Shown: positions 12,724-46,212, counted from the stretch's first letter. The stretch is 64,000 nt of DNA from an uncultured Pseudomonadales bacterium (GCA_964611345.1 CAZSYU010000004.1:17620-81619); one strand, 5' to 3'. Notes: generated by a model from the letters alone, not told the origin. Program-made: numbers and translations.

Positions 12724-12725
12724 AT

Positions 12726-13805: not shown

Positions 13806-13815
13806 TCAGTCTGCT

Positions 13816-25288: not shown

Positions 25289-26314
25289 CTAGCGAGCGCT
25301 CTGTTGTTGCACAAAGTCGACGAGGTGTTTGACGTTCGCTACCGGTGTTTCCGGAATAATGCCGTGCCCAAGGTTGAAGATGTGGCCTGGCCTGTTACCT
25401 ACCTCATCGAGAATCGCACCAGCTTGCGCCGACACGGTAGCCTTATCGGCGCAGAGCACGATGGGATCCATGTTGCCCTGAATCGCTCTACATCCCAGAC
25501 CATTCCAGGTCCTCGTTAACGGCGTACGCCAGTCGAGCGCCAATACATCTGGTGCCGCTTCGTTAAGGGCCTCGAGCAGGTGCCCGTTGCCCGTACCAAA
25601 ATAGATAATCGGTACTTGCCCGCGCAACTTATCGATCAATGCCTTGGTATGGGGCAATGCAAAACTCCGGAAATCTGCTACCGACAGACTGCCCACCCAG
25701 GTATCAAATATTTGAATGGCGTCAACGCCTGCATCAATCTGCAACTGCAAGTAGCTAGCCAACGAATCCGTCAGTTTTGCCATCAGTGCATGCCACGCAT
25801 CCGGAGCCTGATACATCAGCTTTTTAACGTGCACGTAGTTGCGCGAACCCTTGCCCTCCACCGCATATGACGCGAGCGTAAAAGGCGCGCCTGCAAAGCC
25901 AATGAGCGCAATTTCTGCGGGCAAATCACCAAGAATGTTGCTGACGGTATCCGCGATGTAGGGCGTTCCCTCACGCGCCTCAAGCATTCGCAGTGCCTCG
26001 ATATCTTTGGGTGTTCGCACCGGGTTATCAAATACCGGGCCCACTCCCTCCTTATACTCAAGATCCAGCCCCATCGGCACCAGAATTGGCAGTAAGTCAG
26101 CAAACATAATCGCCGCGTCAACCCCAAGTATGCGCTGGGCATCCAGGGTTGCCTGGGCAGACATTTCAGGGTTGGTAAAAAAGTCGAGGCTTTTAGTTTT
26201 ACCCTTTAGTGCGTGGTATTCGGGCATATACCGGCCCGCCTGGCGATTGAGCCATATCGGTGTATGTGGAACTTCGCGACCGTGACAGGCCTCGATAAAA
26301 ATTTTCTCTGACAT
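25289..26314 (-). CDS. hemE: Uroporphyrinogen decarboxylase
   Basis: URO-D signature PIWLNRQAGRYMPEY near the N-terminus; 341 aa. Confidence 0.95.
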   Translation of the reverse strand: MSEKIFIEACHGREVPHTPIWLNRQAGRYMPEYHALKGKTKSLDFFTNPEMSAQATLDAQRILGVDAAIMFADLLPILVPMGLDLEYKEGVGPVFDNPVRTPKDIEALRMLEAREGTPYIADTVSNILGDLPAEIALIGFAGAPFTLASYAVEGKGSRNYVHVKKLMYQAPDAWHALMAKLTDSLASYLQLQIDAGVDAIQIFDTWVGSLSVADFRSFALPHTKALIDKLRGQVPIIYFGTGNGHLLEALNEAAPDVLALDWRTPLTRTWNGLGCRAIQGNMDPIVLCADKATVSAQAGAILDEVGNRPGHIFNLGHGIIPETPVANVKHLVDFVQQQSAR

Positions 26315-26326
26315 AACAGAAGGGAT

Positions 26327-27622
26327 TCAGGCAATCGGCGTGCGCACCTTAGCAGACGGGCGAAAAACCCGCATCCGGGCGAAGCCTTTGAAGTCTTCAT
26401 AACTGGCAGAAAACTCAACGGTATTCACCTCTGCGAACTCGATCCTCACAAGATCAGGCAAGGGTGCTGATGCCACTCGCACGCCACCCTCACGGGCCAG
26501 CCCAGCCTCCAACAACAAACGCATGGTTAGCGGGCACAACACCATAGAGTCCGCCTGGCTGGTCGCCTGGAGGCGTTCTGCCAAAGCGACACAACTACCA
26601 ATTATAGTGTAAGCGCGTACATCGCTGGTGCCGCACTCGCCGAGCGAACAATAACCTGAGGCCAGGCCAACGCGCAGCTGCAGTTGTTGCTCGAGCCCAA
26701 AGCTGGCCCAGCGGTTGTTTAGTTCGGGCAACTGCGCCAGCAACTGATTGGCAAACCGCCAGGCGTTATGCGCCGCAACGCTACGATCTTGCTCAGGCAG
26801 AAAGAACAGCAAGGCGCCATCGCCCATAAACTTGTCGAGCGTGCCGCCACAACGCCCCGCCTGCACAACCACCGCGTCCAGCAGGTCATCGAGCACCAGA
26901 CTGACTAGCTCCGGCGGTAGCGGCGAGCTACGGACCGTGAACTCCACCAGGTCGATGATGACCACGGTCACCCAACAACGACTCTGTCCGATCGGCAGTC
27001 GGCGGGCTAACCCGTGGGGTACAAATGGCTGCAACGTAGCTAGTCGATCCCGCCACAGACTACGGTGATCATCGAGCTTTTGAGTCAGGCGAAAGGCGAC
27101 ATCACACAACGCCACAGCAAATGTGAGTAACAACAGTGTGCCAGGCAACCAATTTGAGATTCCCGTAACGCCCGGGAGCCGCTGCCAAAGCACAAGCACG
27201 TCTGGCGCACCAGCGAATGCAGCGAGCATGACAACAACCAACCCACTAGAGGCAAACGCAAGCAAAACACCCGGCACCACGCGGCCACCACCAAGCGCGA
27301 CATTTGCGGTGACCAGCGTGCCCAACACCGAAAGTGTCAGCGGCAAAGGCAACTGCATGCTCAACAATGCACCGGGAACCAGCAGCGTCTCCGCGCGCTG
27401 CAATTGCCGCACCGCCGTATCACTCGGTGGCGTACCACGAGGAGCCGAGAGAAGACGGACCACATCCAGCACACCTGCACCTAATACCGCAAGCAACAAC
27501 CCCGCAACAAGTTGCGAGTTAGACAGCTGGTGGGGCGGCAGTGCCACAAGCAGCATCGCAAACAGTCCCCAACCCAGCACCCGAAAGGGTCGTGCCTGAC
27601 GGTAAAGGTTTCGAACTGCCAT
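26327..27622 (-). CDS. Membrane-anchored class III adenylate/guanylate cyclase
   Basis: About 200 aa of N-terminal multi-TM region, then a CYCc-like domain (VTVVIIDLVEFT, KFMGDGALLFF). Confidence 0.8.
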   Translation of the reverse strand: MAVRNLYRQARPFRVLGWGLFAMLLVALPPHQLSNSQLVAGLLLAVLGAGVLDVVRLLSAPRGTPPSDTAVRQLQRAETLLVPGALLSMQLPLPLTLSVLGTLVTANVALGGGRVVPGVLLAFASSGLVVVMLAAFAGAPDVLVLWQRLPGVTGISNWLPGTLLLLTFAVALCDVAFRLTQKLDDHRSLWRDRLATLQPFVPHGLARRLPIGQSRCWVTVVIIDLVEFTVRSSPLPPELVSLVLDDLLDAVVVQAGRCGGTLDKFMGDGALLFFLPEQDRSVAAHNAWRFANQLLAQLPELNNRWASFGLEQQLQLRVGLASGYCSLGECGTSDVRAYTIIGSCVALAERLQATSQADSMVLCPLTMRLLLEAGLAREGGVRVASAPLPDLVRIEFAEVNTVEFSASYEDFKGFARMRVFRPSAKVRTPIA

Positions 27623-29179: not shown

Positions 29180-30235
29180 CTAGAATGACCCGTTCAGATA
29201 GAACCAACCTGCTCCCGCTGCGGCAACAACCACCACAGCAATCAAGACCCAGCGCATAGCACCGCCACTGGACCCACTACCTGCCTTTCCTGACTTCGCC
29301 TTCCTTGCTTTATTCTTACCAGCTGCAGCAGCACTACCTGGCAGCAGCAAGAGGGCCTTGGTACCACCAAATTCGATTACATCTTTGGAATTTAGGAAGC
29401 GTTTCAGCACCGCTTCACCATTCACGCGTGTTTTATTTGTCGACATCTGGTCATGTACCGACCACTTCGCGCCGCGACGCACCAATTTAGCGTGAAAATC
29501 AGAAACGCTTGGGTCTTCCAACACGATAGACAGCTCATGCTTGGAGCCATTTTTGCCGATGTTCCAGAAATTTAGGTCGCCTTCGCTCTTGAGCGATATA
29601 GGTTGACCATCACCAGAATCTCCAAGTAATACGAGGGTTGGGTCGGTGAACTGCGCCGCGAGAGCATCCGCATCGATGGCAAACTGATCGTTGGCTTCAC
29701 CGGGTTTCAGGATGATTGTGCCGGGGCTATCGTTCTGCCAGGAGCGCGGCAGGTTTTTGTTAACAGCCATCATCATGGTTTGGCCCATGGCTGCATTAGC
29801 GATATCGCTGTCGTCAGGCTGCCCACTAGGAGCTGGCGCCGGTACCGCGGCGCGAACCACCGTTGCGCCTGGATCCATCGACGCCGCATCCACTGCCGGC
29901 GCAGCAGCACCTTCCGAATCTGACAACGTTAATGTGTGGGTGTCGAACCGTATCTCATCACCGCCGACTGCCATAGTGGGTCCGGTCAGACGCTGATGAT
30001 TGATAAAGGTACCATTGGTCGAACCCAAATCAGTTACCAGCACACCTTCCGCCGCGGGCGCTAAGGTTGCGTGATTGCTCGAAACTGTAGAATGCGCTAG
30101 CTGTAGCACTTCGTCGTAGGAGACGCCTTGATGTTCGGCAGACGGCGCCCGCCCAACAATCACTGTGGTATCAAACTCCAATACTGCTGTACCCGCGTCA
30201 TCGCTCAGGGCAAATCGATTACCTGAAAGGCTCAC
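29180..30235 (-). CDS. Tail-anchored protein with two FHA domains
   Basis: FHA1 is canonical (VGRAP ... VSSNHATL ... STNGTFIN). FHA2 is semi-canonical (IGKNG ... VSDFHAKL ... STNKTRVNG). There is a Lys-rich linker and a C-terminal TM (WVLIAVVVVAAAGAGWFYL). GTG start preceded by GGAGA. Confidence 0.8.
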   Translation of the reverse strand: MSLSGNRFALSDDAGTAVLEFDTTVIVGRAPSAEHQGVSYDEVLQLAHSTVSSNHATLAPAAEGVLVTDLGSTNGTFINHQRLTGPTMAVGGDEIRFDTHTLTLSDSEGAAAPAVDAASMDPGATVVRAAVPAPAPSGQPDDSDIANAAMGQTMMMAVNKNLPRSWQNDSPGTIILKPGEANDQFAIDADALAAQFTDPTLVLLGDSGDGQPISLKSEGDLNFWNIGKNGSKHELSIVLEDPSVSDFHAKLVRRGAKWSVHDQMSTNKTRVNGEAVLKRFLNSKDVIEFGGTKALLLLPGSAAAAGKNKARKAKSGKAGSGSSGGAMRWVLIAVVVVAAAGAGWFYLNGSF

Positions 30236-30272: not shown

Positions 30273-31349
30273 TCATAACAGCCAGTAAACGAGCGCCACC
30301 AAAATCGCCAGCGCCAATGATGCAATAAGCAACTCAACATCAAACCCCTTCATACCAGACTTGTCTTTACCCGCAGATGCCTTCATCTGCTCATCGTCAA
30401 CACCTGAGATATCTGCAGCATTACTGCTGGCAATAGGCAGCGCCGCCTTTTTGGGCAGCGCAATCGTTGTCGCCGCAGCCACTCTAGGCGCGGGCGCAAC
30501 ACCTTCGAAGTCATCATTGCCCAACGGTGCGGGTTCAGCAGCGTCGTCATTGAGCCGCTTGTGACCTTGACCCGGCATGCGCTCAAAACGTTCACGCAAC
30601 TGCTCGACGCTAAGTACCGGCTGTAGCACCTCAATATCTTTAATTCGCAGACATACCACGCTAATGTTATCGAGAGCTTCGCCCAACAGAGTTTCTGCAA
30701 TCAGCGCGCCCACTGCGTCGGTAGGCTCAGGATTCGCCAGCAGCAGGTCGCTGATTTGATCATCCCGCATCTCGTCGTGTAAGCCATCGCTACAAAGCAA
30801 GATCATGTCACCGTTGTCGAGATCCAGACTTAACTCGGCGGGCACTGGTTCAGGGTCAGCGATGCCCAGGGCTTGCACAAGTACGTGCTTCTGGGGGTGA
30901 CCAAACGCATCTGCAGGATCCACCACACCAGACTCTAGTAACTGCTCGAGCAGCGAATGATCCCGGGTCAGCCGAATCAGCTGTTGCTTTCGCCACAGGT
31001 AAACACGGCTGTCGCCGCACCACCCGATTTCAGCTTTACTGCCCTTGATCCGCACCACAACAACAGTGCTGCCCATGTTTTCTGCGGAGCGACGCAGGCC
31101 CTCTGCAACAACCGCCGTATGGGCATCGAAAATCATCGCAGGTAACGCCGGTAGCTCAGAGTGGTCCATAACTGCGGCACTTCCTTGCAACAAGGATTGC
31201 TTAACAATCCGCGAGGCCACATCTCCACACGCATGGCCACCCATACCATCTGCCACCAGCCACACACCGGCGTCTTCAACCCAACCCAACGAATCCTCGT
31301 TGTGCTGGTAACGATTTCCCGGGTGCGACTCGGCAGCAAATTCAATCAC
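30273..31349 (-). CDS. Tail-anchored PP2C-family Ser/Thr protein phosphatase
   Basis: Motifs NEDS, VADGMGGHACGDVAS and LLCSDGLHD, with a C-terminal TM (LLIASLALAILVALVYWLL). Start placed at GTG 31349, 11 nt after the upstream stop. The track ORF extends to 31430. Confidence 0.85.
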   Translation of the reverse strand: MIEFAAESHPGNRYQHNEDSLGWVEDAGVWLVADGMGGHACGDVASRIVKQSLLQGSAAVMDHSELPALPAMIFDAHTAVVAEGLRRSAENMGSTVVVVRIKGSKAEIGWCGDSRVYLWRKQQLIRLTRDHSLLEQLLESGVVDPADAFGHPQKHVLVQALGIADPEPVPAELSLDLDNGDMILLCSDGLHDEMRDDQISDLLLANPEPTDAVGALIAETLLGEALDNISVVCLRIKDIEVLQPVLSVEQLRERFERMPGQGHKRLNDDAAEPAPLGNDDFEGVAPAPRVAAATTIALPKKAALPIASSNAADISGVDDEQMKASAGKDKSGMKGFDVELLIASLALAILVALVYWLL

Positions 31350-31359
31350 TAAACAACAC

Positions 31360-32709
31360 TCAAAAACTCCCCTGAACGGCCGCGGCAGCACGTTGGTAGG
31401 CTTTGGGCCGAAAGGTCTCATCATTGCCAAGACCAGAAAAGAGTCGGTCTAGCGAACTTGCGAGCTGGTCTGCCTCGCCGAGATATTCTGTCAACGTAAC
31501 AATGCTGAGCAGACCCTGTTCTGCTGTACCGTAGTCGACCATACGCCGAGACGCTGCCTGGCCAATCAGCCGCTTGCGTAACGCCCGCACCTTGGCGGTG
31601 CTCACATTTTGCACTTGCCACAGCGCTGACAGCTCATCGATGAGGCTTTGCAGTTGTGTGACTGAAGTGCCAAGTGCCCTGGGGTCACCCTGACCTGCAA
31701 CTACCAGTGCATCGATCGCCCGCTTCAATGCAGCTGTTTTATCTGGAGAAAGCTCTTCACTAATTAACTGTAGCGTACGAAAATGATGATCCGCCAGGCG
31801 TAAGCTGCCAGGCTCAACGCCCTGCTGCCGGCGCTCCTGATACCAGCGCAAGTCCTCCGGATCGAGCCCATGATGACAACTCTGACAGTCAAACATCGAA
31901 AACTCTGGGATAAACTTGGCGCCAGTAAAATAGTCACTACCTAACATTTTCAGAAACGCTCGAGATCCTTCCACCTGCCCGGTGAGCCACAACTGCACGC
32001 CCGCAAAGTTGCCCTTACGCTCTTTATAATCATCATCAACCGAAAAGTGCGGCGGCTGATTGGTCGTGAAATTCTCGAGTTCAAAACTCAACCTGGGATG
32101 GCCCGCGCCCATTATGCGGTGTGTGGTGAACTTATCCTGTGTGCCCAGATGACAACTCAAGCACAACTGCGCTCGCGCCGCTGGCTCCTCTGATGGGTAG
32201 AGGCCATTGGCGATATTATCGGCATGGGTATTGCCTGGATCATCATGGGTTTTAATCCAGTTTTCTGAACCGCCGTGGCACGCCTCGCAACCGACTCCAT
32301 CGTTCAGACTGAACTCCGGGCCACGTTTGTCCTGAGGGACATTGTCAGCATGACAATCCAAACAAATATCTGCGGTATGAGCACTGGCTAAGCCAAGTTT
32401 CGTCGCCATCAACTTGGATTCTGGTGACAACAAGGTCTTGTAGGCACGCGAATGGTAGTCCTGCGCTCGCCATATGCGATGCTCATTCAACCATACGGTG
32501 CGGTTGTCCTGACGACTCGATTTGCCGTGACACGCCCCTCCAGCACAGGACGACGCGCCATAGTGAATATTATCGTCAATGGTGGATACGTCAGCCGAGA
32601 CACTCATACCACACATAAGAATGGCACCAGCACAAATCCACAACGCCACATCACGAGCGGCCTGCCACTTGCTTTGGTATCGGTATTGGCACTGGTATCC
32701 ACCCTTCAC
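31360..32709 (-). CDS. Periplasmic multiheme c-type cytochrome (4x CXXCH + 1x CX4CH) with a helical C-terminal domain
   Basis: Signal-peptide-like N-terminus (ALWICAGAILMCGMSVSA). Motifs CAGGACH, CLDCH, CEACH, CLSCH and CQSCH. The GTG start shares 1 nt with the upstream TAG. Confidence 0.8.
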   Translation of the reverse strand: MKGGYQCQYRYQSKWQAARDVALWICAGAILMCGMSVSADVSTIDDNIHYGASSCAGGACHGKSSRQDNRTVWLNEHRIWRAQDYHSRAYKTLLSPESKLMATKLGLASAHTADICLDCHADNVPQDKRGPEFSLNDGVGCEACHGGSENWIKTHDDPGNTHADNIANGLYPSEEPAARAQLCLSCHLGTQDKFTTHRIMGAGHPRLSFELENFTTNQPPHFSVDDDYKERKGNFAGVQLWLTGQVEGSRAFLKMLGSDYFTGAKFIPEFSMFDCQSCHHGLDPEDLRWYQERRQQGVEPGSLRLADHHFRTLQLISEELSPDKTAALKRAIDALVVAGQGDPRALGTSVTQLQSLIDELSALWQVQNVSTAKVRALRKRLIGQAASRRMVDYGTAEQGLLSIVTLTEYLGEADQLASSLDRLFSGLGNDETFRPKAYQRAAAAVQGSF

Positions 32710-35700
32710 TATCTGGAACCCCCAGCACTAGTTGCGGTTGGCGTGGGTGCTTGTTCTGCGATAGCTTCATTACTGTCACCACCGCCAGCGCTACGCCCAC
32801 GTACGGCTGTACCAGTGCCTTCTGTATCCTGCACAAACCAGGGCTCGCCCGATTCATTGAGGTACAGCTTGTTCATGTCTTCACGGGAGAGTGGTCGAGA
32901 ACCACGGCGCCCAAACACCGCAATCTGTCCACCGGTTTCGTCTACACCCCGATCCCGATCAAGCCCTTTTGATAGTGCCAGTGCTGGCCGCTTGGTGGGA
33001 TAACTCGCGATTAGTTTGGGGTTTGGCTCGGGGCTAAAGCCATAGAAGTTCGGCTGCAGGGAGGGCGACGTCAACTGCACAACTTTCAACCCACCCGCGC
33101 CATCGGCAACGTAGGCAAATAGCGAAGCATTGGTGCTCGCTACGACAACATCATGTGCGTCGACAATCTTGCCACCATCGTTGTAGGTCTGGAGCAGGCG
33201 CATATTGTCGGGTTGAGTGACATCTACCACTGCGAGACCTTGTGCTCCTGCGGCAACATAGGCATAGGTTCGCGCCACGTACACGCGCTTGGCATCACTC
33301 AACGTAATCGTCGACGCTGATAATTTCGGTGCTTTGTTATTGGTGACATCAACGGTCTGCAATCCGTCTGCCGTCGTTACAAACAAATAGCGGAATTGCA
33401 GCGCCGTCGCTCGAGGGTCGCTCATGGGTATGCGGCTCACCAATTGCGGCTCCAGCGGATTCTGCAAAGACACCACCAATACTTCCGTTGGTAACGTCAG
33501 ATAGGCAATAGACCCCCCCAGTGTGATGTGACGAACACCATTTAGCAGACCGTCTGGGTTCCAGGTGAGTGCCCGGCTGAGGTTATTGTTGCGCAGCTCG
33601 CCGTCTTGCAGTGTATTAACGTCAACCAGAATCAAACCTTCTTGGGCATCTGTGATCACCGCGTAGTTGTAAATTGGATGGAAGGGCTGCTCCTGATTGG
33701 TGATACGCATCAGATCGCCTTCGTTCTTAAACGGTGCAATAGGTTGCGTAGACGGCAGCGCCATGCAGGTAGCGTTCTTCGACTTCACCTGTGTACCCTG
33801 ACCGAGCGGACTGAACGGCGTTGTCACAATGCGCTGCGAAAAGCCCTTGTTCGCAACGTTGGCAATGTCATAAACGCGCATTCCGTTTTTACCTTCGGCA
33901 ACGTACAAGTACTCGCCGCGCATTTGTAGACAGTTTGCAGGACCCGAACGATGCCCATACGCATGCTTCAGTACCCCGCCACGCGCTTCATGCTGCGCAA
34001 AGAAATCAGGGTAGGCGTACTTTTGCAGGTAACTGCCAATCACCGCCTGGGGCTCTTCCCACTCGGTTACTTGCACCGCAGAGACCTCGCCATCACCACC
34101 AACCCAGGCGTTATAGCCAACGAAGTTAACGAAGTTGGTTCCGAACATAAGTAGCTGGGCCATAATCGCGTTGTTATCGTTCTGTTCCGACAGATGACAA
34201 TCGCTGCAATTCTTGGTCTCTGATAATCGCACAGTGTGCGGGAAGTGAGGATTGAAGGCCTGCGAACTGAAACCTGAAGCGGCAACCGGTGGTTGCTGAA
34301 TATAGATTTTCTCACGGTTAGCATTTGTCGATGACAGTACCAACGCCGAGGTAGAGCGCACTGGCGCTATCTTGCCACCCTTGGCCGGACCCCTTCGTCC
34401 AAGCAGAAACATCTGATCCCGGGCAACCTGGGGGTTATAGCTGGCAAAGTTTCGACTCTTGCCCCCTTCATAGTGGTGTCGTTCGGTTTTCTTGTTCGCC
34501 TCAATGGGCAAGTGACAACCACCGCAGCTCGTTGTCCAGGACGTATGACAGGTGTAGCACTCCATTTCATCATAGGAATGGGCCAGATCAACACTGGCAA
34601 CCTGATTACCCCACTCCTGTGTTTCGGTGTTGTTAGACATGGTTTTGGCGCGCGCTGCCTTCGAGTTGTAATCCGAGTGTTTCGGATCGACCGCGTTCTT
34701 TACCAGACTGACTTTCCACTCAAGATTTTCATCGAGTGCTGAGCGCTGGTAGAGATCCCCGTTCACCCACTCGAAGCGAGGCCGCCCACCAGGCACCCGA
34801 AGCGACAGAAAATCTGTTCCGCCACCAATCGCAGCTGGTCCGGAGGCGTAGAGATTGGGCAGCTCTTTTGAGGTGCCGTGGCAGTCTTTGCAATCAACCT
34901 CAACAGCAAGTGCTACTTCTCCCTGAATGTGGCCGTTGCCGTGGTTGTCCTGGGCAAAGTGGCAATCAACACAGTGCATCCCCACATCCAGGTGAATCGA
35001 CGACATATGTACCGCCTTGTCGAATTTCTTGGGATCGTCGTTTTCAACCACGTTGTTCTTCGCATCGAGCAGATTACCCGTGCGATCACGTTTGAATACG
35101 GCTCGAAAGTTCCAGCCATGACCGTGATAGTCGGCGAACTGGGTATCATTTAATTCCGGATTCAGCTCAGATACTGCCTCCAGAAAATCCGTGTCCGCCC
35201 ATTTGCCACGGGGCGCTGCTCCTTCCGGATTGCGCTCCAACACTTCATGAATCTCTTCGCTGGTCGGATATTGTTGCTGCTCCGGCCACATCGCAGGCGC
35301 GTCCGATTCGTAGTCCCACATGGTGTAGCCCAGGTAACTGTTCACAAACATGTTCGGCTGGTGCATATGACAAATCATGCATTGTGATGTGGGTATCGCA
35401 TTGGTAAAGCTGTGCTTGATGGGATGCCCTGATTCGTTTTTTGGAATGGTCGGATCAAGCGTTGCGGTTTTACCAGTGTGGCCATGCTGGGCGTAACCGC
35501 CTGAATGTCGCGGATCACGGTCGTTGGCATACACAACGTGACAGGATGCGCAGCCAGAATTGCGATAATCACCCGGTTGATCGTTAGTGCCCATAAACCA
35601 GGTAAAAGGGTCATTCAGACGTGTTTTAGTGATATTGATTACGGGGACAGAAATGCGCGCACCCGTTGCCGGGCCACGGTTTGATTGACGAATATCAGGT

Positions 35701-36638
35701 CGACCCGGTTCCTCCAGACGTTGCACCAAGCCTAAGGAGTTGGGTATAGCCGTTTCCGGGAACAGGTTAATGATGTTGCGGCCGCCGCGCTCAAACACTC
35801 GAAACACATCACCGGGCTTGGTCGTTTCCCAGGCTGGCAAAGGCAACAGTTGCGGCAAAATACCTTTCTCATCTTTCAGCTGCTCCGCGAGCACCGTATC
35901 TAGCACCGGGCCTTTCAACACCGCTGGCTTACCGTCGGTGGTGTAAGATTCACCCAATATGTACTGCTTGAACGGCAAGATGCCGTTGTTGTAGGCCGCA
36001 CCGCCCCAAAGCATGGCGCCTGTGGCGTGCAACGACCGGACAGATTTCTCAATCTGATCCTGGTGACATGAACCACACGCCAGCTCAACGACACGATAGT
36101 CAGAAGGATTCACAAAACGCACAAACTCGCGGCTTTCTTTATTTAGCAGCGTGTACGTGCGCTCCGGATTGGCAGAATGCGGGTAGTGCCAAGCGTCAGG
36201 GTACTCCGGCAGTATGTGTGCCAACTCCTTAACCGCAATGTACTCATCCGACTGGTTGCCTTTAGGCAGACCATGACCGCCTTCGCCACCACTCTTGGCA
36301 TTACGCGGCACAAACTGACTGGCATCACCGCCGTGGCAATCGGTACAACCCAGATCCACGCCCGGCGCGTTGTGCATGGTTTTTTGATCAGATTCGGTAT
36401 GGCAAGATACGCAACCCGCACTCTTTTCACTGGCAGCAATAGCGCTTGGCTGATTTGCCGGGGCCGCAGGTGCCATGACGTAGTTACGCTCTACTTTTAT
36501 TACTGCCTCAGAAGCTTCAACCCCTTCGCTCCATATAGTACTGAAAACAAAGCCAGCACCGGTCACGCCAGCTGCTAACAAACTCAACGAAACCAGTAAG
36601 CCGCGCAACTTCTCAATTTTTCGCATCGAATTGTTCAT
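32709..36638 (-). CDS. Decaheme c-type cytochrome fused to a C-terminal LVIVD-like beta-propeller
   Basis: N-terminal signal/anchor helix. Ten CXXCH motifs between about nt 36416 and 34193, including a paired CYTCHTSWTTSCGGCH. The C-terminal ~350 aa (about nt 33940-32900) has repeated GMRVYDI, GLILVDVN, GLAVVDVT and GLKVVQLT strands. ATG 36638 is preceded by GAGGAG. Confidence 0.8.
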   Translation of the reverse strand: MNNSMRKIEKLRGLLVSLSLLAAGVTGAGFVFSTIWSEGVEASEAVIKVERNYVMAPAAPANQPSAIAASEKSAGCVSCHTESDQKTMHNAPGVDLGCTDCHGGDASQFVPRNAKSGGEGGHGLPKGNQSDEYIAVKELAHILPEYPDAWHYPHSANPERTYTLLNKESREFVRFVNPSDYRVVELACGSCHQDQIEKSVRSLHATGAMLWGGAAYNNGILPFKQYILGESYTTDGKPAVLKGPVLDTVLAEQLKDEKGILPQLLPLPAWETTKPGDVFRVFERGGRNIINLFPETAIPNSLGLVQRLEEPGRPDIRQSNRGPATGARISVPVINITKTRLNDPFTWFMGTNDQPGDYRNSGCASCHVVYANDRDPRHSGGYAQHGHTGKTATLDPTIPKNESGHPIKHSFTNAIPTSQCMICHMHQPNMFVNSYLGYTMWDYESDAPAMWPEQQQYPTSEEIHEVLERNPEGAAPRGKWADTDFLEAVSELNPELNDTQFADYHGHGWNFRAVFKRDRTGNLLDAKNNVVENDDPKKFDKAVHMSSIHLDVGMHCVDCHFAQDNHGNGHIQGEVALAVEVDCKDCHGTSKELPNLYASGPAAIGGGTDFLSLRVPGGRPRFEWVNGDLYQRSALDENLEWKVSLVKNAVDPKHSDYNSKAARAKTMSNNTETQEWGNQVASVDLAHSYDEMECYTCHTSWTTSCGGCHLPIEANKKTERHHYEGGKSRNFASYNPQVARDQMFLLGRRGPAKGGKIAPVRSTSALVLSSTNANREKIYIQQPPVAASGFSSQAFNPHFPHTVRLSETKNCSDCHLSEQNDNNAIMAQLLMFGTNFVNFVGYNAWVGGDGEVSAVQVTEWEEPQAVIGSYLQKYAYPDFFAQHEARGGVLKHAYGHRSGPANCLQMRGEYLYVAEGKNGMRVYDIANVANKGFSQRIVTTPFSPLGQGTQVKSKNATCMALPSTQPIAPFKNEGDLMRITNQEQPFHPIYNYAVITDAQEGLILVDVNTLQDGELRNNNLSRALTWNPDGLLNGVRHITLGGSIAYLTLPTEVLVVSLQNPLEPQLVSRIPMSDPRATALQFRYLFVTTADGLQTVDVTNNKAPKLSASTITLSDAKRVYVARTYAYVAAGAQGLAVVDVTQPDNMRLLQTYNDGGKIVDAHDVVVASTNASLFAYVADGAGGLKVVQLTSPSLQPNFYGFSPEPNPKLIASYPTKRPALALSKGLDRDRGVDETGGQIAVFGRRGSRPLSREDMNKLYLNESGEPWFVQDTEGTGTAVRGRSAGGGDSNEAIAEQAPTPTATSAGGSR

Positions 36639-36649
36639 CCCTGAGCTCC

Positions 36650-38629
36650 TCAAAACGCCAACACAAGGTTCATCTGGAAATAACCTGCTTCTTCATCCGG
36701 AAACAAATCCTTGAACCCCTTACCGGGAATCAGATGCGCATAGCTGGTGCGCACTACAATGTTCTGGGTTACCAGTGGTCGCCAGATTAGACTCAAGGAC
36801 AGGTCATGGCCGATCTCTTCGTCGATCGAGCCCTGGTTACGCACTGTTTCGAGCACCTGGGTGTGATCAAAGCGCATATAGTTGTAGTTGAAGCTCAATC
36901 GCAGTGATGGCAGGAGATCTGCATCGGCACCAATTCCAGCGAGTATCATCCCTGGATTGGTGAAGTTTGACTGGCCCTGTTCCTTGGACGATCGTAGATT
37001 GTTTAGCAGCCCATTCCGGGTAGACAAAGCAACGCGCCCCCCGCCAATCAACGGCACCGATTGCCGCAGCCAATAGCTGGTGTCTGAACCCGCGAATACA
37101 GGATTTTCGAATATGGCATCAAAGCCGGTTGCCCGATCGTCGAACGGGTCTTTATCACCACTGCCGTAGAGCAATGACCCACGAAGGCGCAACCAATCCA
37201 TATCAAAGCCGGCTTCAGCGGCAAAGAATCCAGCCCTGATATCAACCTTCCTCTCTTCGAACACACCCGGTTCAACGCTGCCTATCGCATAGTACGCAGA
37301 AGTTGTCAGATTAAGCCGACCAAAGTGGCCATCACCGTTGTAACCGAAGTACACCACATCGTATTTACGTGGCCGTTCGTCGCCAATGGAGGCGGGGCGA
37401 GCAATAAACTCGTTGTTGTCGAAGAAAAATTCATTGTCTTCCCGGTTACGGTTGTAAACAACGGTCGCCTGCGACACAAAACCAAGTTTCGGGAAGTCTT
37501 GCCAATAGAAGTTGGCTGCCACGACGTCGTCTTTGCGTAAATCTCGGGTAACGTCGTTCAACCCACTGTTAGTGTCCTTCTCGAGACGCCGGAAGTACGC
37601 AAGGTTGTACTGGAAGATGTTGTTATTGCGGTTACCAAACAGACGAACCCCTAGCTGGCTGTCCTGAAAAAGAAAGCCACGAAAATCGCTGTTAAACGGC
37701 TGAATACCAATTCGAAAACTGTCGAAATCGTATCGATCGCCTACGTTACGCAAGTGTCGATCATAGAACGCTGCCTGAATACCCAAGTGATGGTCAGTTC
37801 GTGACGTACCTCGGCTTGGTCGGGCGTTTACACCCTGAATCTCATCGAGATTTACATAGTTGATGCTCAGCACCGGCGTAAACCGAAACTCATGATCGGG
37901 AGGGCGAAACACCGTGTCGCCTTTCAGATACACAAATTCTGCAGCAAGATTTTGGTTAAAGAAGATTTGATCGGAAGTGCCAAAAATGTCGATGCCCCCG
38001 GGATCGTTAGTCGAGGACGCGCCCACAGGTGTCGGCACTTCGCGCACTTCCAATATACTGTCTGACAGCGCGTTAATGGAAAAGAACCATTCGTCGTCAT
38101 TGACGGGAATATCGCCCTTCAATACGTTGCGATTGTAGGGATCCCACCACGGATACTGATAACGAACCGAGTCATTGCCCACAACACCCCGGAACCCATC
38201 CAGGTTATCAACAATACGCCAGCGATCAGGCATGGCGAGCGTCACACAGTTCTGTGCACCCCCTTTGCAGTCTAGCGTCGGCGCCGCTGCCACACACTCG
38301 CTGCGGCCGGAACTGACGCAGGGCACTTTGGAAGGCGTATTTCTGCCACGTATCAGGCCATAGTCGAATACATTTTCTTCCCCGGCCGCACGCGCGGTCG
38401 AGCCTTCTACTCGATCGGCAGCGTTTTCTGCATCAGGACGCGGACACTCTACGCGTATGTAACCGGGTCGACGTCGATTGACTATGCGACCGCGATCGTC
38501 TGCGTAACAGACTTCAGCGGCTTCAACAGGCAGCGCGGACAGCATCAAGATCACCGTACCACCGGTGACACTGGCACCCAGCACGACCGCACATGACAGA
38601 GCTGCAGACAGTAATGATAGAACTTTCAT
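36650..38629 (-). CDS. Putative large outer-membrane beta-barrel (porin-like) protein with a Cys-rich N-terminal extension
   Basis: Signal peptide (MKVLSLLSAALSCAVVLGA...). Six Cys in the first ~100 mature residues. Long alternating aromatic/hydrophilic strands follow, with a C-terminal ...QMNLVLAF ending in Phe as in OMPs. The ATG directly abuts the upstream TAG. Confidence 0.6.
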   Translation of the reverse strand: MKVLSLLSAALSCAVVLGASVTGGTVILMLSALPVEAAEVCYADDRGRIVNRRRPGYIRVECPRPDAENAADRVEGSTARAAGEENVFDYGLIRGRNTPSKVPCVSSGRSECVAAAPTLDCKGGAQNCVTLAMPDRWRIVDNLDGFRGVVGNDSVRYQYPWWDPYNRNVLKGDIPVNDDEWFFSINALSDSILEVREVPTPVGASSTNDPGGIDIFGTSDQIFFNQNLAAEFVYLKGDTVFRPPDHEFRFTPVLSINYVNLDEIQGVNARPSRGTSRTDHHLGIQAAFYDRHLRNVGDRYDFDSFRIGIQPFNSDFRGFLFQDSQLGVRLFGNRNNNIFQYNLAYFRRLEKDTNSGLNDVTRDLRKDDVVAANFYWQDFPKLGFVSQATVVYNRNREDNEFFFDNNEFIARPASIGDERPRKYDVVYFGYNGDGHFGRLNLTTSAYYAIGSVEPGVFEERKVDIRAGFFAAEAGFDMDWLRLRGSLLYGSGDKDPFDDRATGFDAIFENPVFAGSDTSYWLRQSVPLIGGGRVALSTRNGLLNNLRSSKEQGQSNFTNPGMILAGIGADADLLPSLRLSFNYNYMRFDHTQVLETVRNQGSIDEEIGHDLSLSLIWRPLVTQNIVVRTSYAHLIPGKGFKDLFPDEEAGYFQMNLVLAF

Positions 38630-40822
38630 CTATAAGCCCTCGCAAGGTCGTTGAATGGAGGGATCAAACGAACCACCTTCCAGGAACGGCGATTGCGGAC
38701 ACTGGATGTAACGCAAGCGCGTATCGCGAGGCATGAGCTGGTCCGCACGTATTTCGGGTGGCGCGTTGTTTATGCTGCCCGTCTCAAGACCAGCCTCATG
38801 CAAGCCCAAAAACGAGATCATGTCGTCCTGATCTACGCCGTCACCGGATACGCCGATGCCACCTATGAGCATGTTGCCGCGATAGATAGGCACGCTGCCC
38901 GGAAAAATCTGAAAGCCATTAGCTACCCTGTTAGTCATCGCGGCCGGGCTGATAGATACCAGCCCGAGATCGATGAGCCCAGGCGTCGAGGTGCCCGGAT
39001 TAAACCCGGCACCGGCACACCCCTGGACCACATCTGGCGCGAGCGCCCCATCGGTGACGGAGAACAGCACATGTTGCACCAGAGCGTTAATCGCCAGATC
39101 GAGCTGCAAACCCGTCGAGAAAGGGCTCCACTCACCAGCTGGCTTGCTCAGTGGGCCAGCGCCTCGCTCATCAATACCATCAGGAAAAAATGGCCGCGAC
39201 AAATTGCCACCGGCTCGATCAGAAAACGCAAACGCGCCATTGGCCAGAGCCAGCGGATCTTCGAGGAAGTTACGCAGGTCGGTGACGTAATCACCGAGCG
39301 ACAGAACTTGAAACAACTCCGGGCCAGCATCTGTAAATCCAACATAATTAGTGGGCGGCAGAGCGTTCAAAAAGTCTGCGCTACTGGCGCTGGAAAAAAA
39401 TGCGGCGGTTCGTGCTTTTTGTAAGGAGACGTCCGCACCAAACACTGGAGCATCGCGAGTACGCACCATTCCCAGTATTTCACCATTGGTATCAACAACA
39501 GAGATAGTGACCCGGGCCGGTGAATTCAACGGCCGGCGAATCTGTGCACGCGCACTATTGGCTACCCTTAAGGCGTTACTCAACAGGGACTGGGTTTCCG
39601 CTACCGTAAGCTGATTACCGCCAGTTTCAACGGCGTCAGTGCCGGGTCGTGCCGGAAACCGATTGACATTGGCAGCGTTTACAAAAACAAACGCATCCTG
39701 ACCATCAAACCCACTTACCGCCGGCCTGATACCTGACGCTGGCGTACCGAAGGCCGTGCCGGCGCGAATGGTCCCGTCAAAATAGCCGGTAACATTAACA
39801 AGTGCACCCGTCGCGGTTGAGAACGCAGGCGCGTTGGCCGGATCACTCATCAGGTCTTCGACACCTGCATCACTGAAGCGAAAAGTCTTGCCATCTACGG
39901 TAATTCGATTGGCACGACGGTCGAGGGGCGCAGACCAACCGAAAGACGCAGCGACCGCAATCAGTTCGTCGATGTCTGTATCAATGTCACCAATGGCCGG
40001 GTCTATGCCATAGCGACCGTCCGCAATGACGCCCACGCCACCTACGGGCACACCGTTGCGATACAAAGGCAGGCCACCTGGATCAGCAGCCAAACCCAAT
40101 GGTGAACGATGGGGTCCTGGTTCTGCGGCTCCGCCACTAAAACGCTGTGAAAAGTCCGAACAGGAAAGCTGCGAAAACTGCACGCCAAACAGTGGTCCGG
40201 CCGGCTGGTTTAGCTCGCCGGGGTTAAAGTGCTCTTGCACGATCTGATTCGCGGTGCGAGTAGTAAACGCATTACCTTCACTCGATAGATAAGCGCCTGT
40301 TATAGCCTTAGCGATGGCACCAAGCTGGTCGATATTAAAGGGCACGGCTGCTGTAGGGAGCCGCAATCCCTCGAGGCCACCACTAATCAGCGGCGTCCCA
40401 TCGTCTGCCGTGGCAGTTGCAACCAGCATGGATCGATCCGCAGGATCACCCATGCGGAACACACCAAGCACATTACCCACCCGATCCGTTACCGCAATGG
40501 TGGCCTGGACATTTCGCGCCTGTGCCTCAGCCACACCTTGAGCGATGATTGTTTCTACATCAGCAACAGAGAGCGATTCGGGTACCGTTGTGCCGCACTC
40601 ACCAGAGCATGCCGGATCGGGACCGGTTACTCCTAGGGGTTCTTCCCGACCACCGCCGCCACAGCCACTAAATTGCGCAAGCACGAATACTGCGGCCGCA
40701 ATTTTTAGTTTCAGCGACGGTTTGTAACGGTCATTCCGTTTAAAGCGTTCATAACGTTTATAGGTTTCTTTGACAAAACCATGGCCCACACTCTGACCCT
40801 CTACCATCTTGGTTGCGTTCAT
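38630..40822 (-). CDS. Lipoprotein with two GlcG/HbpS-like (DUF336, heme-binding/degrading fold) modules
   Basis: Lipobox LAQFSGC. Module 1 has ATIAVTDRVGNVLGVFRMGD ... GGLPLYRNGVPVGGVGVIADG. Module 2 has VTISVVDTNGEILGMVRTRDAPVFGADVSLQKARTAAFF ... GSVPIYRGNMLIGGIGVSGDGVDQDD. The ATG overlaps the upstream TGA (ATGA) and is preceded by AGGAGG. Confidence 0.65.
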   Translation of the reverse strand: MNATKMVEGQSVGHGFVKETYKRYERFKRNDRYKPSLKLKIAAAVFVLAQFSGCGGGGREEPLGVTGPDPACSGECGTTVPESLSVADVETIIAQGVAEAQARNVQATIAVTDRVGNVLGVFRMGDPADRSMLVATATADDGTPLISGGLEGLRLPTAAVPFNIDQLGAIAKAITGAYLSSEGNAFTTRTANQIVQEHFNPGELNQPAGPLFGVQFSQLSCSDFSQRFSGGAAEPGPHRSPLGLAADPGGLPLYRNGVPVGGVGVIADGRYGIDPAIGDIDTDIDELIAVAASFGWSAPLDRRANRITVDGKTFRFSDAGVEDLMSDPANAPAFSTATGALVNVTGYFDGTIRAGTAFGTPASGIRPAVSGFDGQDAFVFVNAANVNRFPARPGTDAVETGGNQLTVAETQSLLSNALRVANSARAQIRRPLNSPARVTISVVDTNGEILGMVRTRDAPVFGADVSLQKARTAAFFSSASSADFLNALPPTNYVGFTDAGPELFQVLSLGDYVTDLRNFLEDPLALANGAFAFSDRAGGNLSRPFFPDGIDERGAGPLSKPAGEWSPFSTGLQLDLAINALVQHVLFSVTDGALAPDVVQGCAGAGFNPGTSTPGLIDLGLVSISPAAMTNRVANGFQIFPGSVPIYRGNMLIGGIGVSGDGVDQDDMISFLGLHEAGLETGSINNAPPEIRADQLMPRDTRLRYIQCPQSPFLEGGSFDPSIQRPCEGL

Positions 40823-42663
40823 TCCTTTCCACCTCCTGAGTCACCACCGGCGACTCTCCCCGCGTTGGTCGCCCACTGTTGCGCGCTTGCTTGCCCACCT
40901 AGTAAGGGTGCTCCATCAAAGCCCGCAAAGTTCCGCGGGTGATACGCGTGACAATCTATGCACGCCAATGCCACCTGAGATACACTATCGCGATCGCCAT
41001 GGCACTCATAACAGGTGGCCATCGTTGGCATAAGCAGATCGGTCGCACTGGCAGAATTCTTGGCGGCGTGACAGGTATCGCAGGCCTGATCACCCACCAA
41101 CAGCTCGCTACTTTCGCCATCACGCAACACCTGATGAGCGATATGATCGAATCGCGCATCGGGCACAAAATCCTGTGGCAGCTTCACTGGATGCACCCAG
41201 AACTGGTCTTCGATATCCTTCGAATCCTGGCGTTCAAACTGATGACACGCAGCACAGCCGATATCACCGGCAAACTGAGCTTCGACGATCTCTTTTAGTT
41301 CACGCTCCACACAGACGTCTGGCGCGTCAGTACAACCGGCCACTCGATCCGGACGATCTGGCAAACGGCGATAGGCAAACAGCTCACCCGTGTCATCAGG
41401 ATCGAAGTATTTTTTCAGTAACATGCCTTCAAGCGCCAACACCGCTTCTTTTAAACGCGCATGTGGCAAGCTCCGATCAGGGTCGGACTCATCAAAATCA
41501 AGTTGGTGACAATCCTGGCAATGCGCTTCCATGCTGACTGGCAAGAAATGTTCGCCGTCGATGCTCATGCTGTGGCAGGTTCCGCAAGTGAGAGCTTCAC
41601 CGGTTACTAAATCTGACACTTCGCCAACATCCAGATGAATATCGTGAGGAAACACAAGTTCCGAAGTTTCTGGCGAATTCGCTATCTCAGTTTCGCTGAC
41701 CGCTTCGATCCGCCATCCATCATCTTTCGATCCGGCAAACTCCTCGAGCGTGAAGCGCGGTAGCGAGTATTCGTAAACCGGATGGGTTTCTGGAGTGAAG
41801 CCCGTCACTGCTGCTAACGGATCTATATCGCGATGAATGCCACCACCAGAGTCAGTGCCTGCTGCGTGGCATTGCACACAGTCACCATCGGCGTCGCGAA
41901 CTAAAGTGCTCGGCTCGTTGTGCTCCCGATGACAGACGCCACAACGCTCATTTGCATTGGCACCGAAGTCGAGCCCGCCAGACCCAAGTTCGCCAGGCAC
42001 GGAGGTCGCGGCTAAAAACGCGCTGCTGACATGATCTTGAATTGAACCGTGGCACGCCTCACAAGCCTCGTTTTGAACACGTTCGAAGGGTTTGCCGTGA
42101 CAACCGGCACAATTTTCGCCCGTGACCAACTCATGCGCGGCATGCAGCTCACCAGACGTCCATACATGATCTGAAAAGAGCCCACTAACCGGCGCCTGGG
42201 TGGCGCGTTCGCCGGAAAACAGAAAGGGCACAATAAACATACCCAGTAACACAACCAGTGCACCAATCCATGCGAACGCACGTTTCGCTAAAAACGTATC
42301 AGCCAAGCTGAGTTTTTGTGTTGACAACACCGAAACATGATCTGCTGCACGACGCACTATCAACATGCCGTCAAAACCACCCGGCGCTTCTTCTACATGC
42401 ACGCTAGCACCAGGTAGCTCTATGAGATCGCCGGATCGCAAAACACAGCGCTTAACCACATTGCCGTTAACCTGCACACCATCACGAGTGGTGCTGCGCA
42501 AGACTAGCCCTTCTCGTCCCAGCTCAATACTCGCGTGGCGCAGTTCAAGCAGCGGTAGTTGCAGGTGCGCATCGTTAGCAGACCCGAGAATAACGCGATC
42601 AATCCCGTGTTCTTGGTCTATGTGGCCGCCTGCTTCCCTGGCGATGCGTATCAAGAGGTCCAT
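40819..42663 (-). CDS. FHA-like domain / single TM / periplasmic decaheme c-type cytochrome fusion protein
   Basis: The N-terminal ~100 aa are FHA-like (RVILGS...LRHASIEL...TRDGVQVNGNVV...GDLIELPG). One TM (AFAWIGALVVLLGMFIVPFLF). Then ten CXXCH motifs (CAGCH, CEACH, CGVCH, CVQCH, CGTCH, CQDCH, CAACH, CDTCH, CYECH, CIDCH). ATG 42663 lies 4 nt after the upstream TAA. The track ORF starts at 42693. Confidence 0.8.
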   Translation of the reverse strand: MDLLIRIAREAGGHIDQEHGIDRVILGSANDAHLQLPLLELRHASIELGREGLVLRSTTRDGVQVNGNVVKRCVLRSGDLIELPGASVHVEEAPGGFDGMLIVRRAADHVSVLSTQKLSLADTFLAKRAFAWIGALVVLLGMFIVPFLFSGERATQAPVSGLFSDHVWTSGELHAAHELVTGENCAGCHGKPFERVQNEACEACHGSIQDHVSSAFLAATSVPGELGSGGLDFGANANERCGVCHREHNEPSTLVRDADGDCVQCHAAGTDSGGGIHRDIDPLAAVTGFTPETHPVYEYSLPRFTLEEFAGSKDDGWRIEAVSETEIANSPETSELVFPHDIHLDVGEVSDLVTGEALTCGTCHSMSIDGEHFLPVSMEAHCQDCHQLDFDESDPDRSLPHARLKEAVLALEGMLLKKYFDPDDTGELFAYRRLPDRPDRVAGCTDAPDVCVERELKEIVEAQFAGDIGCAACHQFERQDSKDIEDQFWVHPVKLPQDFVPDARFDHIAHQVLRDGESSELLVGDQACDTCHAAKNSASATDLLMPTMATCYECHGDRDSVSQVALACIDCHAYHPRNFAGFDGAPLLGGQASAQQWATNAGRVAGGDSGGGKE

Positions 42664-42667
42664 AGGC

Positions 42668-46086: not shown

Positions 46087-46092
46087 GGCCAA

Positions 46093-46212
46093 TCTCCCCA
46101 GATCAACGCTTAGTGTTGTCCGTAACCTACATTCATGACAACCTTTTTATTCTCGATTTCGATAACCTATTCTTGCCGCAGTTTGACTACTGCCATTACG
46201 CAGGTTTTGACC
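46093..46212. promoter_or_regulatory. Divergent control region between the cytochrome operon (-) and the TM-FHA gene (+)
   Basis: 120-nt AT-richer spacer. It carries a direct repeat of TAACCTA at 46123-46129 and 46163-46169 (40-bp period). No promoter boxes were assigned. Confidence 0.35.

Follow-up and report, generated by a model that had tools for sequence, protein, structure and literature searches.

A decahaem cytochrome with an LVIVD beta-propeller and its conserved gene cluster in an uncultured Pseudomonadales bacterium

The 64,000-nucleotide stretch of DNA analysed here belongs to an uncultured Pseudomonadales bacterium (GCA_964611345.1 CAZSYU010000004.1:17620-81619); it is referred to below as the window, and all positions are counted from its first letter. 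On the minus strand, at 32709-36638, the window encodes a protein of 1309 amino acids (aa), in which ten CXXCH haem-binding motifs are followed by a C-terminal beta-propeller of the LVIVD type. It is reasonable to see in this protein the distal cytochrome of a chain that spans the envelope, because its conserved gene cluster comprises an inner-membrane module, multihaem cytochromes, a lipoprotein and an outer-membrane barrel. The reading that we put forward tentatively, as the likeliest of several, is that the protein would form the outer-membrane-proximal end of an outward electron chain and, on the periplasmic side, would dock to the barrel or the lipoprotein.

The decahaem-propeller protein and its family

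The gene was delimited by its open reading frame, the ten CXXCH motifs and a Shine-Dalgarno sequence. Its start codon is the ATG at 36638, which was favoured over a TTG at 36653 because GGAG is located 7 nt upstream of the ATG; the GGAG stands right behind the stop codon of the preceding gene. An identical 1309-aa sequence is present in the public protein collection (P0001).

The first-pass annotation of the window, made from the sequence alone, had noted ten CXXCH motifs spread over about 740 aa, strand motifs of the LVIVD type, a Gly/Thr-rich tail and an N-terminal signal or anchor helix without a lipobox. This description of the sequence was borne out in every part. The haem motifs are located at aa 76, 98, 188, 363, 420, 556, 583, 694, 705 and 811, spanning 740 aa, with the doubled motif CYTCHTSWTTSCGGCH at aa 694, while 0.012 such motifs are expected by chance from the amino-acid composition. 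Besides the cysteines of the haem motifs, the protein contains only two, at aa 903 and 958, and it has no CXXCK motif.

The haem domain (aa ~47-870; 34029-36500, minus strand), recognised by the motif positions and by conservation in distant relatives, shows the highest conservation within the protein. Fifteen relatives of 40-64% identity retain all ten haem motifs, haem 3 being CX4CH in some of them, and 13 further His residues, candidates for distal ligands, are invariant or almost invariant among the relatives. The motifs, the Sec export and the conserved candidate distal His are together those of a multihaem c-type cytochrome, to which class the protein is assigned by its predicted features. 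The Pfam matches of the domain are weak and generic (c7, c3 and c554). An internal duplication like that of MtrC was sought by an hhalign comparison of the two halves of the domain, in which only 28 columns align, haems 1-2 against haems 6-7; the origin of the halves as duplicates of each other was rejected, the match being limited to this di-haem stretch.

The blocks of the haem domain that were modelled worst by AlphaFold2 are its best conserved ones, with a mean identity of 81% versus 70% for the remaining domain. We read these blocks as segments that may fold only around the haems or against a partner, for instance the barrel, and not as disorder. At aa ~205-230, 270-370, 410-430 and 710-800 the identity per block is 80-98%, yet the predicted local distance difference test (pLDDT) is 29-45, and a Gly/Pro/Arg/Asn-rich run of ~100 residues preceding haem 4 is among the conserved and badly modelled stretches. 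A relative of 1648 aa (P0131) contains 28 CXXCH motifs, with ~18 extra haems fused ahead of the conserved decahaem-propeller body.

The N-terminus is predicted to be a Sec signal peptide (aa 1-46; 36501-36638, minus strand) cleaved at VEA/SEA. Homologues possess standard Sec signal peptides with AxA followed by S-E, and the protein of the window fits this pattern near aa 46. Its signal peptide has no lipobox and lacks any Cys, the family consensus being an AxA cleavage site, and no recognisable surface-sorting signal was found in the protein; a typical member of the family likewise carries a plain Sec signal. The earlier description of the N-terminus thus holds for the signal and for the lack of a lipobox, and fails for the anchor, in view of the cleavable AxA-type signal of the homologues. 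Anchoring in the inner membrane was ruled out on the same grounds.

The propeller (aa ~880-1250; 32889-34001, minus strand) was recognised with Pfam, AlphaFold2 and Foldseek and is predicted to have about seven blades. The Pfam family LVIVD (PF08309) matches it in two stretches (E-value 8e-15, 54.3 bits versus a cut-off of 20.2). The four LVIVD-type strand motifs quoted in the first-pass annotation were found at aa 919, 1001, 1134 and 1183; GLQTVDV at aa 1092 is a fifth clear one, and around aa 1044-1060 there is a degenerate one. The AlphaFold2 model, built for aa 61-1260 from 104 sequences, has a predicted template modelling score (pTM) of 0.78 and a mean pLDDT of 68.7. Residues ~840-1230 reach a pLDDT of 85-97, and their strand pattern fits about seven four-stranded blades, a count read from the predicted strand list and not from coordinates. 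With the Pfam match and this predicted fold, the earlier assignment of the C-terminal region to a propeller is upheld.

The Foldseek search of the PDB with the ~1200-residue model returned propellers only: AztD, YWTD domains, BamB, an S-layer protein, BtuG and cd1 nitrite reductase. The identity of these matches is 8-14%, with none standing out; the haem domain is modelled too poorly to give matches. Cd1 nitrite reductase (1gjq, E-value 5.6e-7) and the quinohaemoprotein dehydrogenases resemble the protein in the fusion of a c-type cytochrome domain to a beta-propeller; the cd1 fold match is, however, no better than that of many unrelated propellers. The propellers of these enzymes hold d1 haem or pyrroloquinoline quinone (PQQ) through conserved ligands, whereas the propeller described here gives no Pfam match to them and contains neither a His nor a Cys that stays invariant in distant relatives. 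This argues against a cd1, PQQ or copper site and for a docking or binding role, and a cofactor-binding propeller of the cd1, PQQ or multicopper kind was rejected as the leading idea. The propeller is also less conserved than the haem domain, with blades 3-5 falling to 24-48% identity per block. Its lower conservation, together with the lack of an invariant His/Cys cluster, fits a docking or binding module.

The protein ends in a low-complexity tail (aa 1251-1309; 32712-32888, minus strand), which differs among homologues. The last ~50 aa are rich in Gly, Thr and Ala, as had been noted for Gly and Thr, and vary in length and sequence between homologues. A conserved ...G.PWFV.D motif lies within the tail segment, at aa 1264-1271.

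The CXXCH-LVIVD architecture, first noticed in this one sequence, was sought in other genomes and proved to be abundant in Proteobacteria, Nitrospirota, Acidobacteria and KSB1. The word-indexed protein search retrieved more than 7,600 clusters at 90% identity, of which the best 120 are full-length, 67-86% identical and annotated only as "hypothetical" or "LVIVD repeat-containing". At 50% identity the family comprises 1,003 clusters (E-value <= 1e-30), and at least 490 species-representative genomes carry it. The identity is 62-70% between Alpha- and Gammaproteobacteria and about 40% across phyla, relatives of about 40-45% identity being present in Acidobacteria, KSB1, Nitrospirota and others. 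The named hosts are Halieaceae, Cellvibrionaceae, Steroidobacteraceae, pelagic Rhodospirillaceae and Nitrospirota. These groups are mostly aerobic, and large multihaem systems are not expected there. The cultured carriers are Kineobactrum, Oceanicoccus sagamiensis, Parahaliea maris, Pseudoteredinibacter isoporae and Arenicella; Steroidobacter flavus, also cultured, was seen by its barrel homologue only.

The searches of characterised families did not assign a function to the protein. No NCBIfam profile matched it above the curated cut-off; the best was ExtM of a selenite/tellurite reduction operon (NF040943, 63.3 bits versus 800), whose alignment covers short haem-motif stretches only. Neither the single sequence nor the 104-sequence profile found a relative in the PDB at an E-value <= 10, and the MtrC/MtrF domain profile PF22113 gave no match at an E-value <= 1. 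The catalytic multihaem families NrfA, octahaem reductases, HAO and MccA were not matched in NCBIfam or Pfam; a five-coordinate catalytic haem may nevertheless be present. Membership of a known enzyme family, named in the first-pass annotation as grounds for abandoning its proposal, is indicated by none of the hidden Markov model or PDB sequence searches. In the libraries searched, no member of the family has a solved structure or a functional name. The literature, searched by protein, host families and cluster components, yielded no description of a CXXCH-LVIVD protein. The Tenderiales uet cluster and the MtoAB-like cluster of Methylobacter were considered as descriptions of the gene cluster and rejected as different systems.

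The gene cluster and its electron-transfer partners

The gene belongs to a run of genes on one strand, which mostly overlap or abut; the junctions at the end of the run, from the PP2C gene to the FHA gene, have gaps of a few tens of bases. In the order of transcription, the run encodes an 850-aa flavoprotein, a 291-aa membrane protein, a 624-aa decahaem cytochrome, a 730-aa lipoprotein, the barrel, the decahaem-propeller protein, a pentahaem cytochrome, a PP2C-type phosphatase and an FHA-domain protein. The gene order is common to 80 related loci. Counting for each partner only the loci with enough flanking sequence, the barrel is encoded directly upstream of the decahaem-propeller protein in 69 of 69 loci, and the lipoprotein is present in 61 of 61, the inner-membrane module in 54 of 55 and the pentahaem cytochrome in 63 of 74. 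The median identity is 66% for the decahaem-propeller protein, 58% for the barrel, 56% for the lipoprotein, 50% for the flavoprotein and 32% for the inner-membrane decahaem cytochrome; judged by sequence identity, the first of these is the best-conserved protein of the cluster.

The first gene of the cluster (43540-46092, minus strand) encodes the predicted cytoplasmic flavoprotein, which combines an FAD/NAD(P)H domain, two cyclic-nucleotide-binding (cNMP) domains and a 4Fe-4S ferredoxin domain. The Pfam families found are Pyr_redox_3, cNMP_binding (two stretches) and Fer4, and NCBIfam yields only sub-threshold TrxR/YpdA and DmsB/NrfC-like matches. The sequence contains two GxGxxG/A motifs and four Cys clusters and lacks a signal peptide.

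The 291-aa membrane protein (42668-43543, minus strand) was recognised by its invariant His and hydrophobic segments. Five His are invariant in 57 homologues, and two pairs of His, H81/H95 and H269/H283, lie in hydrophobic segments, the members of each pair being 14 residues apart. Pairs of His with this spacing are the signature of two b haems stacked across the membrane, an arrangement known from cytochrome b and from the ferric-reductase domain that NOX, FRE and MsrQ share. A weak match to cytochrome b561 was also obtained, and the counterpart in one distantly related locus (L081) has a faint match to Pfam Ferric_reduct. The protein has about four to five hydrophobic segments versus six in the classical ferric-reductase domain. 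Its sequence features suggest that it is probably a di-haem b transmembrane electron carrier of the ferric-reductase-like kind.

The 624-aa decahaem cytochrome (40819-42693, minus strand) is predicted to be tethered to the inner membrane through a transmembrane segment at aa 134-164 and carries ten CXXCH motifs with Pfam c7, c3 and paired-CXXCH matches. Its cytoplasmic N-terminus (aa 1-110) shows weak similarity to FHA domains (E-value 0.003 with the FHA protein of the window and 0.014 with the FHA domain of Ki-67). If this similarity is true, the multihaem cytochrome would be a direct reader of phospho-threonine signals.

The pentahaem cytochrome (449 aa; 31360-32709, minus strand) is a predicted periplasmic, c554-like protein with a signal peptide, four CXXCH and one CX4CH motif and a helical C-terminal domain. 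It matches Pfam Cytochrome_C554 with an E-value of 1.7e-9 and the c554 structure 1bvb with an E-value of 8e-4. Nine of the 11 loci that lack it are labelled Alphaproteobacteria or Rhodospirillaceae; in the five such loci inspected, the cluster ends with the decahaem-propeller gene, with no multihaem gene after it.

The barrel (659 aa; 36650-38629, minus strand) was identified by AlphaFold2 (pLDDT 73, pTM 0.70, 18 long strands) and Foldseek. The best match is the 18-strand alginate exporter AlgE (3rbh, E-value 3e-15, TMt 0.62-0.66), followed by OprD/Occ channels, and no MtrB-type structure is present among the 50 best matches. Pfam families, including MtrB_PioB, do not match the barrel even at an E-value of 10, and it has no haem motif. 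Invariant, polar residues make up most of the predicted lining of the lumen, including 9 Arg, 8 Asp and 3 Glu that at least 90% of sequences share. At the N-terminus (aa 40-62), a confidently modelled, conserved hairpin bracketed by two Cys (family consensus CYQDDxGRIVxRRRPGYxEVPCP) is followed by a disordered linker, and a near-invariant segment of 70 residues between strands 13 and 14 (aa 490-560) may, according to the model, sit in the pore. MtrB uses 26 strands to sheath MtrA; a barrel of 18 strands can pass a solute or a chain, and not a multihaem cytochrome or a propeller of ~45 Å. An MtrB/PioB-like sheath was accordingly rejected on the strand count and on the fold matches to AlgE and OprD/Occ. 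The first-pass annotation had also suggested that the propeller may plug into the adjacent barrel, which is contradicted by the predicted size of the latter.

The lipoprotein (730 aa; 38630-40822, minus strand) contains two HbpS/GlcG-like domains (Pfam HbpS-like, E-value 9.5e-23, two stretches), and its sequence matches in the PDB are GlcG/EfgA and a putative extracellular haem-binding protein. The lipobox L-[AS]-[AG]-C-G/S-G-G is conserved in its homologues.

The core of the cluster, comprising the barrel, the decahaem-propeller protein, a c554-like multihaem cytochrome, the cNMP/FeS protein, the membrane protein and the decahaem cytochrome, recurs beside relatives of 40-44% identity in Nitrospirota, Acidobacteria and a further, distant bacterial locus (L082). 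The gene order in the Nitrospirota locus is the same as in the window. The Acidobacteria locus and L082 encode the whole core and FHA proteins, with Ser/Thr kinases close by, and the order of L081 from the decahaem-propeller gene onwards matches these two loci. At the end of the Acidobacteria version there is a separate FHA protein with FAD_binding_6 and NAD_binding_1 domains of the FNR type. Flavin domains of this type are classically the NAD(P)H-oxidising entry point in NOX/FRE-like systems, and the presence of this protein was taken as support for such an entry point here. The NAD(P)H-side module would appear to be interchangeable, being a fused Pyr_redox domain in the window and a separate FNR-type protein in Acidobacteria.

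The only related description found in the literature searched is that of ptdABCDEFG, a putative porin-cytochrome cluster that occurs in marine bacteria and has been named but not characterised (Elbon et al., bioRxiv 10.1101/2023.11.21.568154). This cluster encodes an FAD/NAD(P) oxidoreductase, a protein with cNMP and 4Fe-4S domains, a ferric-reductase-like membrane protein, decahaem and tetrahaem cytochromes, a porin and a pentahaem cytochrome with a beta-sandwich; it was reported in Alpha- and Gammaproteobacteria and Nitrospirales and is transcribed in ocean oxygen-deficient zones (bioRxiv 10.1101/2023.11.21.568154). Its function was called "completely unknown" by its authors, who also considered extracellular electron transfer (bioRxiv 10.1101/2023.11.21.568154). 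The inner-membrane module is common to both clusters, as matched by domain architecture only and not by alignment; the 850-aa flavoprotein corresponds to PtdC and PtdE fused, the D-E-F-G gene order is kept in the distant versions of the cluster of the window, and the reported taxa overlap with its hosts. However, ptd lacks a decahaem-propeller protein of 1,200-1,300 aa, which in the window occupies the place of PtdA next to the barrel, and it lacks the HbpS-like lipoprotein. Neither protein is mentioned in the paper or its supplements, and the words "LVIVD" and "propeller" do not occur in the supplements. The structure of T. tepidum c552, to which PtdA was reported to be similar, was not matched by the profile of the decahaem-propeller protein. 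The signature component of this envelope redox system, which extends over several phyla and appears to be Ptd-related, is the decahaem-propeller protein, and the input module, the barrel and the terminal protein of the system are all unusual; the acceptor of its chain, once known, would also illuminate the ptd operon of the ocean oxygen-deficient zones.

A possible outward electron chain and its alternatives

The reading favoured above is built on the domains found, the conserved His pairs, the signal peptides and the lipobox, the folds as predicted and the conserved gene order. In the proposed chain, NAD(P)H would reduce the FAD of the 850-aa cytoplasmic protein, and the electrons would pass through its 4Fe-4S clusters, cross the inner membrane through the two b haems of the 291-aa protein and enter the inner-membrane-anchored decahaem cytochrome. 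The c554-like pentahaem cytochrome, where present, would relay them to the ten haems of the decahaem-propeller protein, giving ~25 c-type haems in all, long enough to cross the periplasm. After Sec export and cleavage of its signal, this protein would be soluble at the periplasmic side of the outer membrane, where the seven-bladed propeller would hold the haem domain at the 18-strand barrel, the HbpS-like lipoprotein or both, and the terminal acceptor of the electrons would come to this site, or depart from it, by way of the barrel channel. The chain would not be constitutive, being switched by a cyclic nucleotide and by Ser/Thr phosphorylation through the cNMP, FHA and PP2C domains and a nearby kinase and cyclase. 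From the observed features we infer the contacts, the span of the periplasm, the side of the outer membrane, the passage of the acceptor through the barrel and the control, as well as the electron direction.

Docking of this kind has precedents. BamB on BamA, at the periplasmic side, and BtuG on BtuB, at the external side, are propellers used for docking or ligand capture at a barrel, and both are among the fold matches of the protein. The propellers of BamB and BtuG are seven- or eight-bladed. Both are, however, lipoproteins without redox cofactors, and the likeness to the protein of the window is that of a generic fold.

The trans-envelope transfer of electrons by cytochromes is known already, and the cluster resembles MtrCAB, MtoAB and PioAB in containing multihaem c-type cytochromes, an outer-membrane barrel and a lipoprotein, which plausibly link both membranes. 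The components differ. The 26-strand MtrB stands against a barrel of 18 strands that resembles AlgE and matches MtrB neither in Pfam nor among its 50 best folds. MtrC and OmcA have a lipobox, MtrC domains and two duplicated pentahaem domains, none of which is matched by the decahaem-propeller protein. The decahaem profile of MtrA/DmsE (TIGR03508) gives 14.7-19.4 bits versus a cut-off of 192.2 for this protein and both neighbouring cytochromes. The input of the Mtr systems is a quinol-oxidising cytochrome of the CymA type, whereas the input here would be the cytoplasmic flavoprotein and the di-haem b carrier; a supply of electrons from NAD(P)H in the cytoplasm by way of a di-haem b protein of the ferric-reductase-like kind is unlike the Mtr/Pcc paradigm, in which the chain is fed from the quinone pool.

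Several points weigh against the periplasmic, outward reading. Several relatives at 40-50% identity carry a lipobox, as do surface cytochromes such as MtrC; porin-cytochrome conduits are typified by a dedicated outer-membrane barrel beside a cytochrome; the model of the haem domain is poor (pLDDT 30-85); we infer the direction of electron flow only from domain logic and redox potentials; and one distant member (L085) has no inner-membrane module nearby. In addition, the LVIVD family of Pfam was first described in, and defined on, cell-surface proteins (PMC2447325). The context of the L085 member (7725-13998), where a 751-aa AMIN-domain protein precedes the relative and a monohaem cytochrome c follows it, suggests that the family is able to work with other partners.

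Part of these points bears on an alternative that is possible, though less probable than the periplasmic reading: the protein may be the surface-exposed terminal reductase of an extracellular conduit, with the propeller binding a mineral or another external substrate or capping the barrel from outside. The invariable adjacency of the barrel, the cell-surface origin of the LVIVD description and the lipoprotein nature of some relatives would suit it, as would the faster evolution of the propeller compared with the haem domain, which is expected of an exposed surface. BtuG, capping BtuB from outside, offers a precedent, and extracellular electron transfer was considered for ptd (bioRxiv 10.1101/2023.11.21.568154). 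Against it stand the AlgE/OprD-like, haem-free barrel of 18 strands, the low TIGR03508 scores, which indicate no small decahaem cytochrome of the MtrA/DmsE type, and the plain Sec signal of the typical family member. No haem route across the outer membrane is visible, because the barrel is small and haem-free and there is no MtrA-like insert. Surface exposure is unproven, because the protein has a cleavable Sec signal and neither a lipid anchor nor a recognisable sorting signal; it is no less likely that the protein is located at the periplasmic face of the outer membrane. The first-pass annotation had suggested that the protein may be the outermost component of a conduit. What stands of this claim, in view of the conserved cluster, is the position at the far end of an electron chain; the outermost, surface-exposed position is not supported.

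A broader interpretation, which we regard as rather doubtful, is that the cluster is a two-membrane counterpart of the NADPH oxidases and ferric reductases, gated by a cyclic nucleotide and phosphorylation and used in mostly aerobic hosts, the decahaem-propeller protein being the terminal oxidoreductase at or beyond the outer membrane with Fe(III), Mn(IV) or O2 as the acceptor. The cluster shares with NOX, FRE, STEAP and MsrQ the order of NAD(P)H, flavin, two b haems (His pairs 13-14 residues apart) and an acceptor on the far side. It differs from them in that its parts for flavin, iron-sulfur and membrane passage are split over several proteins or fused in another way, that an iron-sulfur relay is inserted, and that the output would be ~25 c-type haems leading to the outer membrane rather than a direct substrate. 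If this interpretation is true, the cluster could be the missing enzyme system for extracellular superoxide production or reductive metal acquisition in aerobic marine and soil heterotrophs.

It is unlikely that the chain serves redox defence or repair of the envelope rather than a substrate outside, using cytoplasmic reducing power to detoxify reactive oxygen or chlorine species or to repair oxidised envelope components in the manner of MsrQ-MsrP, with the decahaem-propeller protein as a terminal peroxidase- or reductase-like enzyme. The mostly aerobic host groups and the ferric-reductase-like membrane component, with its MsrQ-like logic, are in line with such a function. The HbpS family is tied to redox-stress sensing in Streptomyces, and the partner lipoprotein has HbpS-like domains; the heavy control by cNMP, FHA, PP2C and Ser/Thr kinase would suit a stress-switched system. 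However, the barrel is never missing, although small oxidants do not require an outer-membrane channel of their own, 25 c-type haems are a large investment for detoxification, and no peroxidase, Msr or repair-enzyme domain was found in the cluster with Pfam and NCBIfam.

Inward flow, with the decahaem-propeller protein oxidising an external or periplasmic low-potential donor (such as reduced sulfur, Fe(II) or reduced organic matter) and the electrons passing to the cytoplasmic flavoprotein, is improbable: multihaem chains are reversible in principle, the 18-strand barrel could import a soluble donor, ptd function was left open and ptd-carrying Alphaproteobacteria also transcribe the sulfide/sulfur oxidation genes FccAB, SoxCD and SoxYZ (bioRxiv 10.1101/2023.11.21.568154), but for most donors it would be unfavourable to reduce NAD(P)+ by way of a di-haem b carrier, working against the membrane potential, no carbon-fixation or lithotrophy genes are present in or beside the cluster of the window, and the flavin/NAD(P) domains of the Acidobacteria version are of the classically NAD(P)H-oxidising type.

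Regulatory and other neighbouring genes

The PP2C-type Ser/Thr phosphatase (385 aa; 30273-31430, minus strand; Pfam PP2C, E-value 1.6e-12) is co-located with the decahaem-propeller gene in 40 of the 80 loci. The FHA-domain protein encoded at the end of the run (351 aa; 29180-30235, minus strand; Pfam FHA, E-value 1.7e-27, two stretches) is co-located with it in 34-40 loci, and FHA proteins flank the distant versions of the cluster too. A second FHA-domain protein (233 aa; 46135-46836, plus strand; Pfam FHA, E-value 2.4e-18) is transcribed divergently from the first gene of the cluster and is a possible regulator of it.

An adenylate/guanylate cyclase gene is located four genes downstream of the decahaem-propeller gene (26327-27622, minus strand), and in a Nitrospirota locus (L083, 95-745) a cyclase directly precedes the homologous cluster. 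The two cNMP-binding domains of the flavoprotein may sense a nucleotide made by the nearby cyclase. Upstream of the cluster, on the same strand, there are genes for a Ser/Thr protein kinase (52561-54168, minus strand), a protein with a caspase domain and Sel1 repeats (50491-52437, minus strand) and a 1200-aa autotransporter with four Calx-beta domains (46857-50459, minus strand). Ser/Thr kinases are also encoded near distant versions of the cluster, and the upstream kinase may be paired with its PP2C and FHA proteins.

Five genes downstream of the decahaem-propeller gene, the window encodes uroporphyrinogen decarboxylase of haem biosynthesis (25289-26314, minus strand), a position that L001 and L002, the two closest relatives, alone share with it. 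Outside the conserved cluster, a 178-aa open reading frame (23964-24500, minus strand) combines a TFIIB-type zinc ribbon with a weak multihaem match (PF13447, E-value 1.3e-4).

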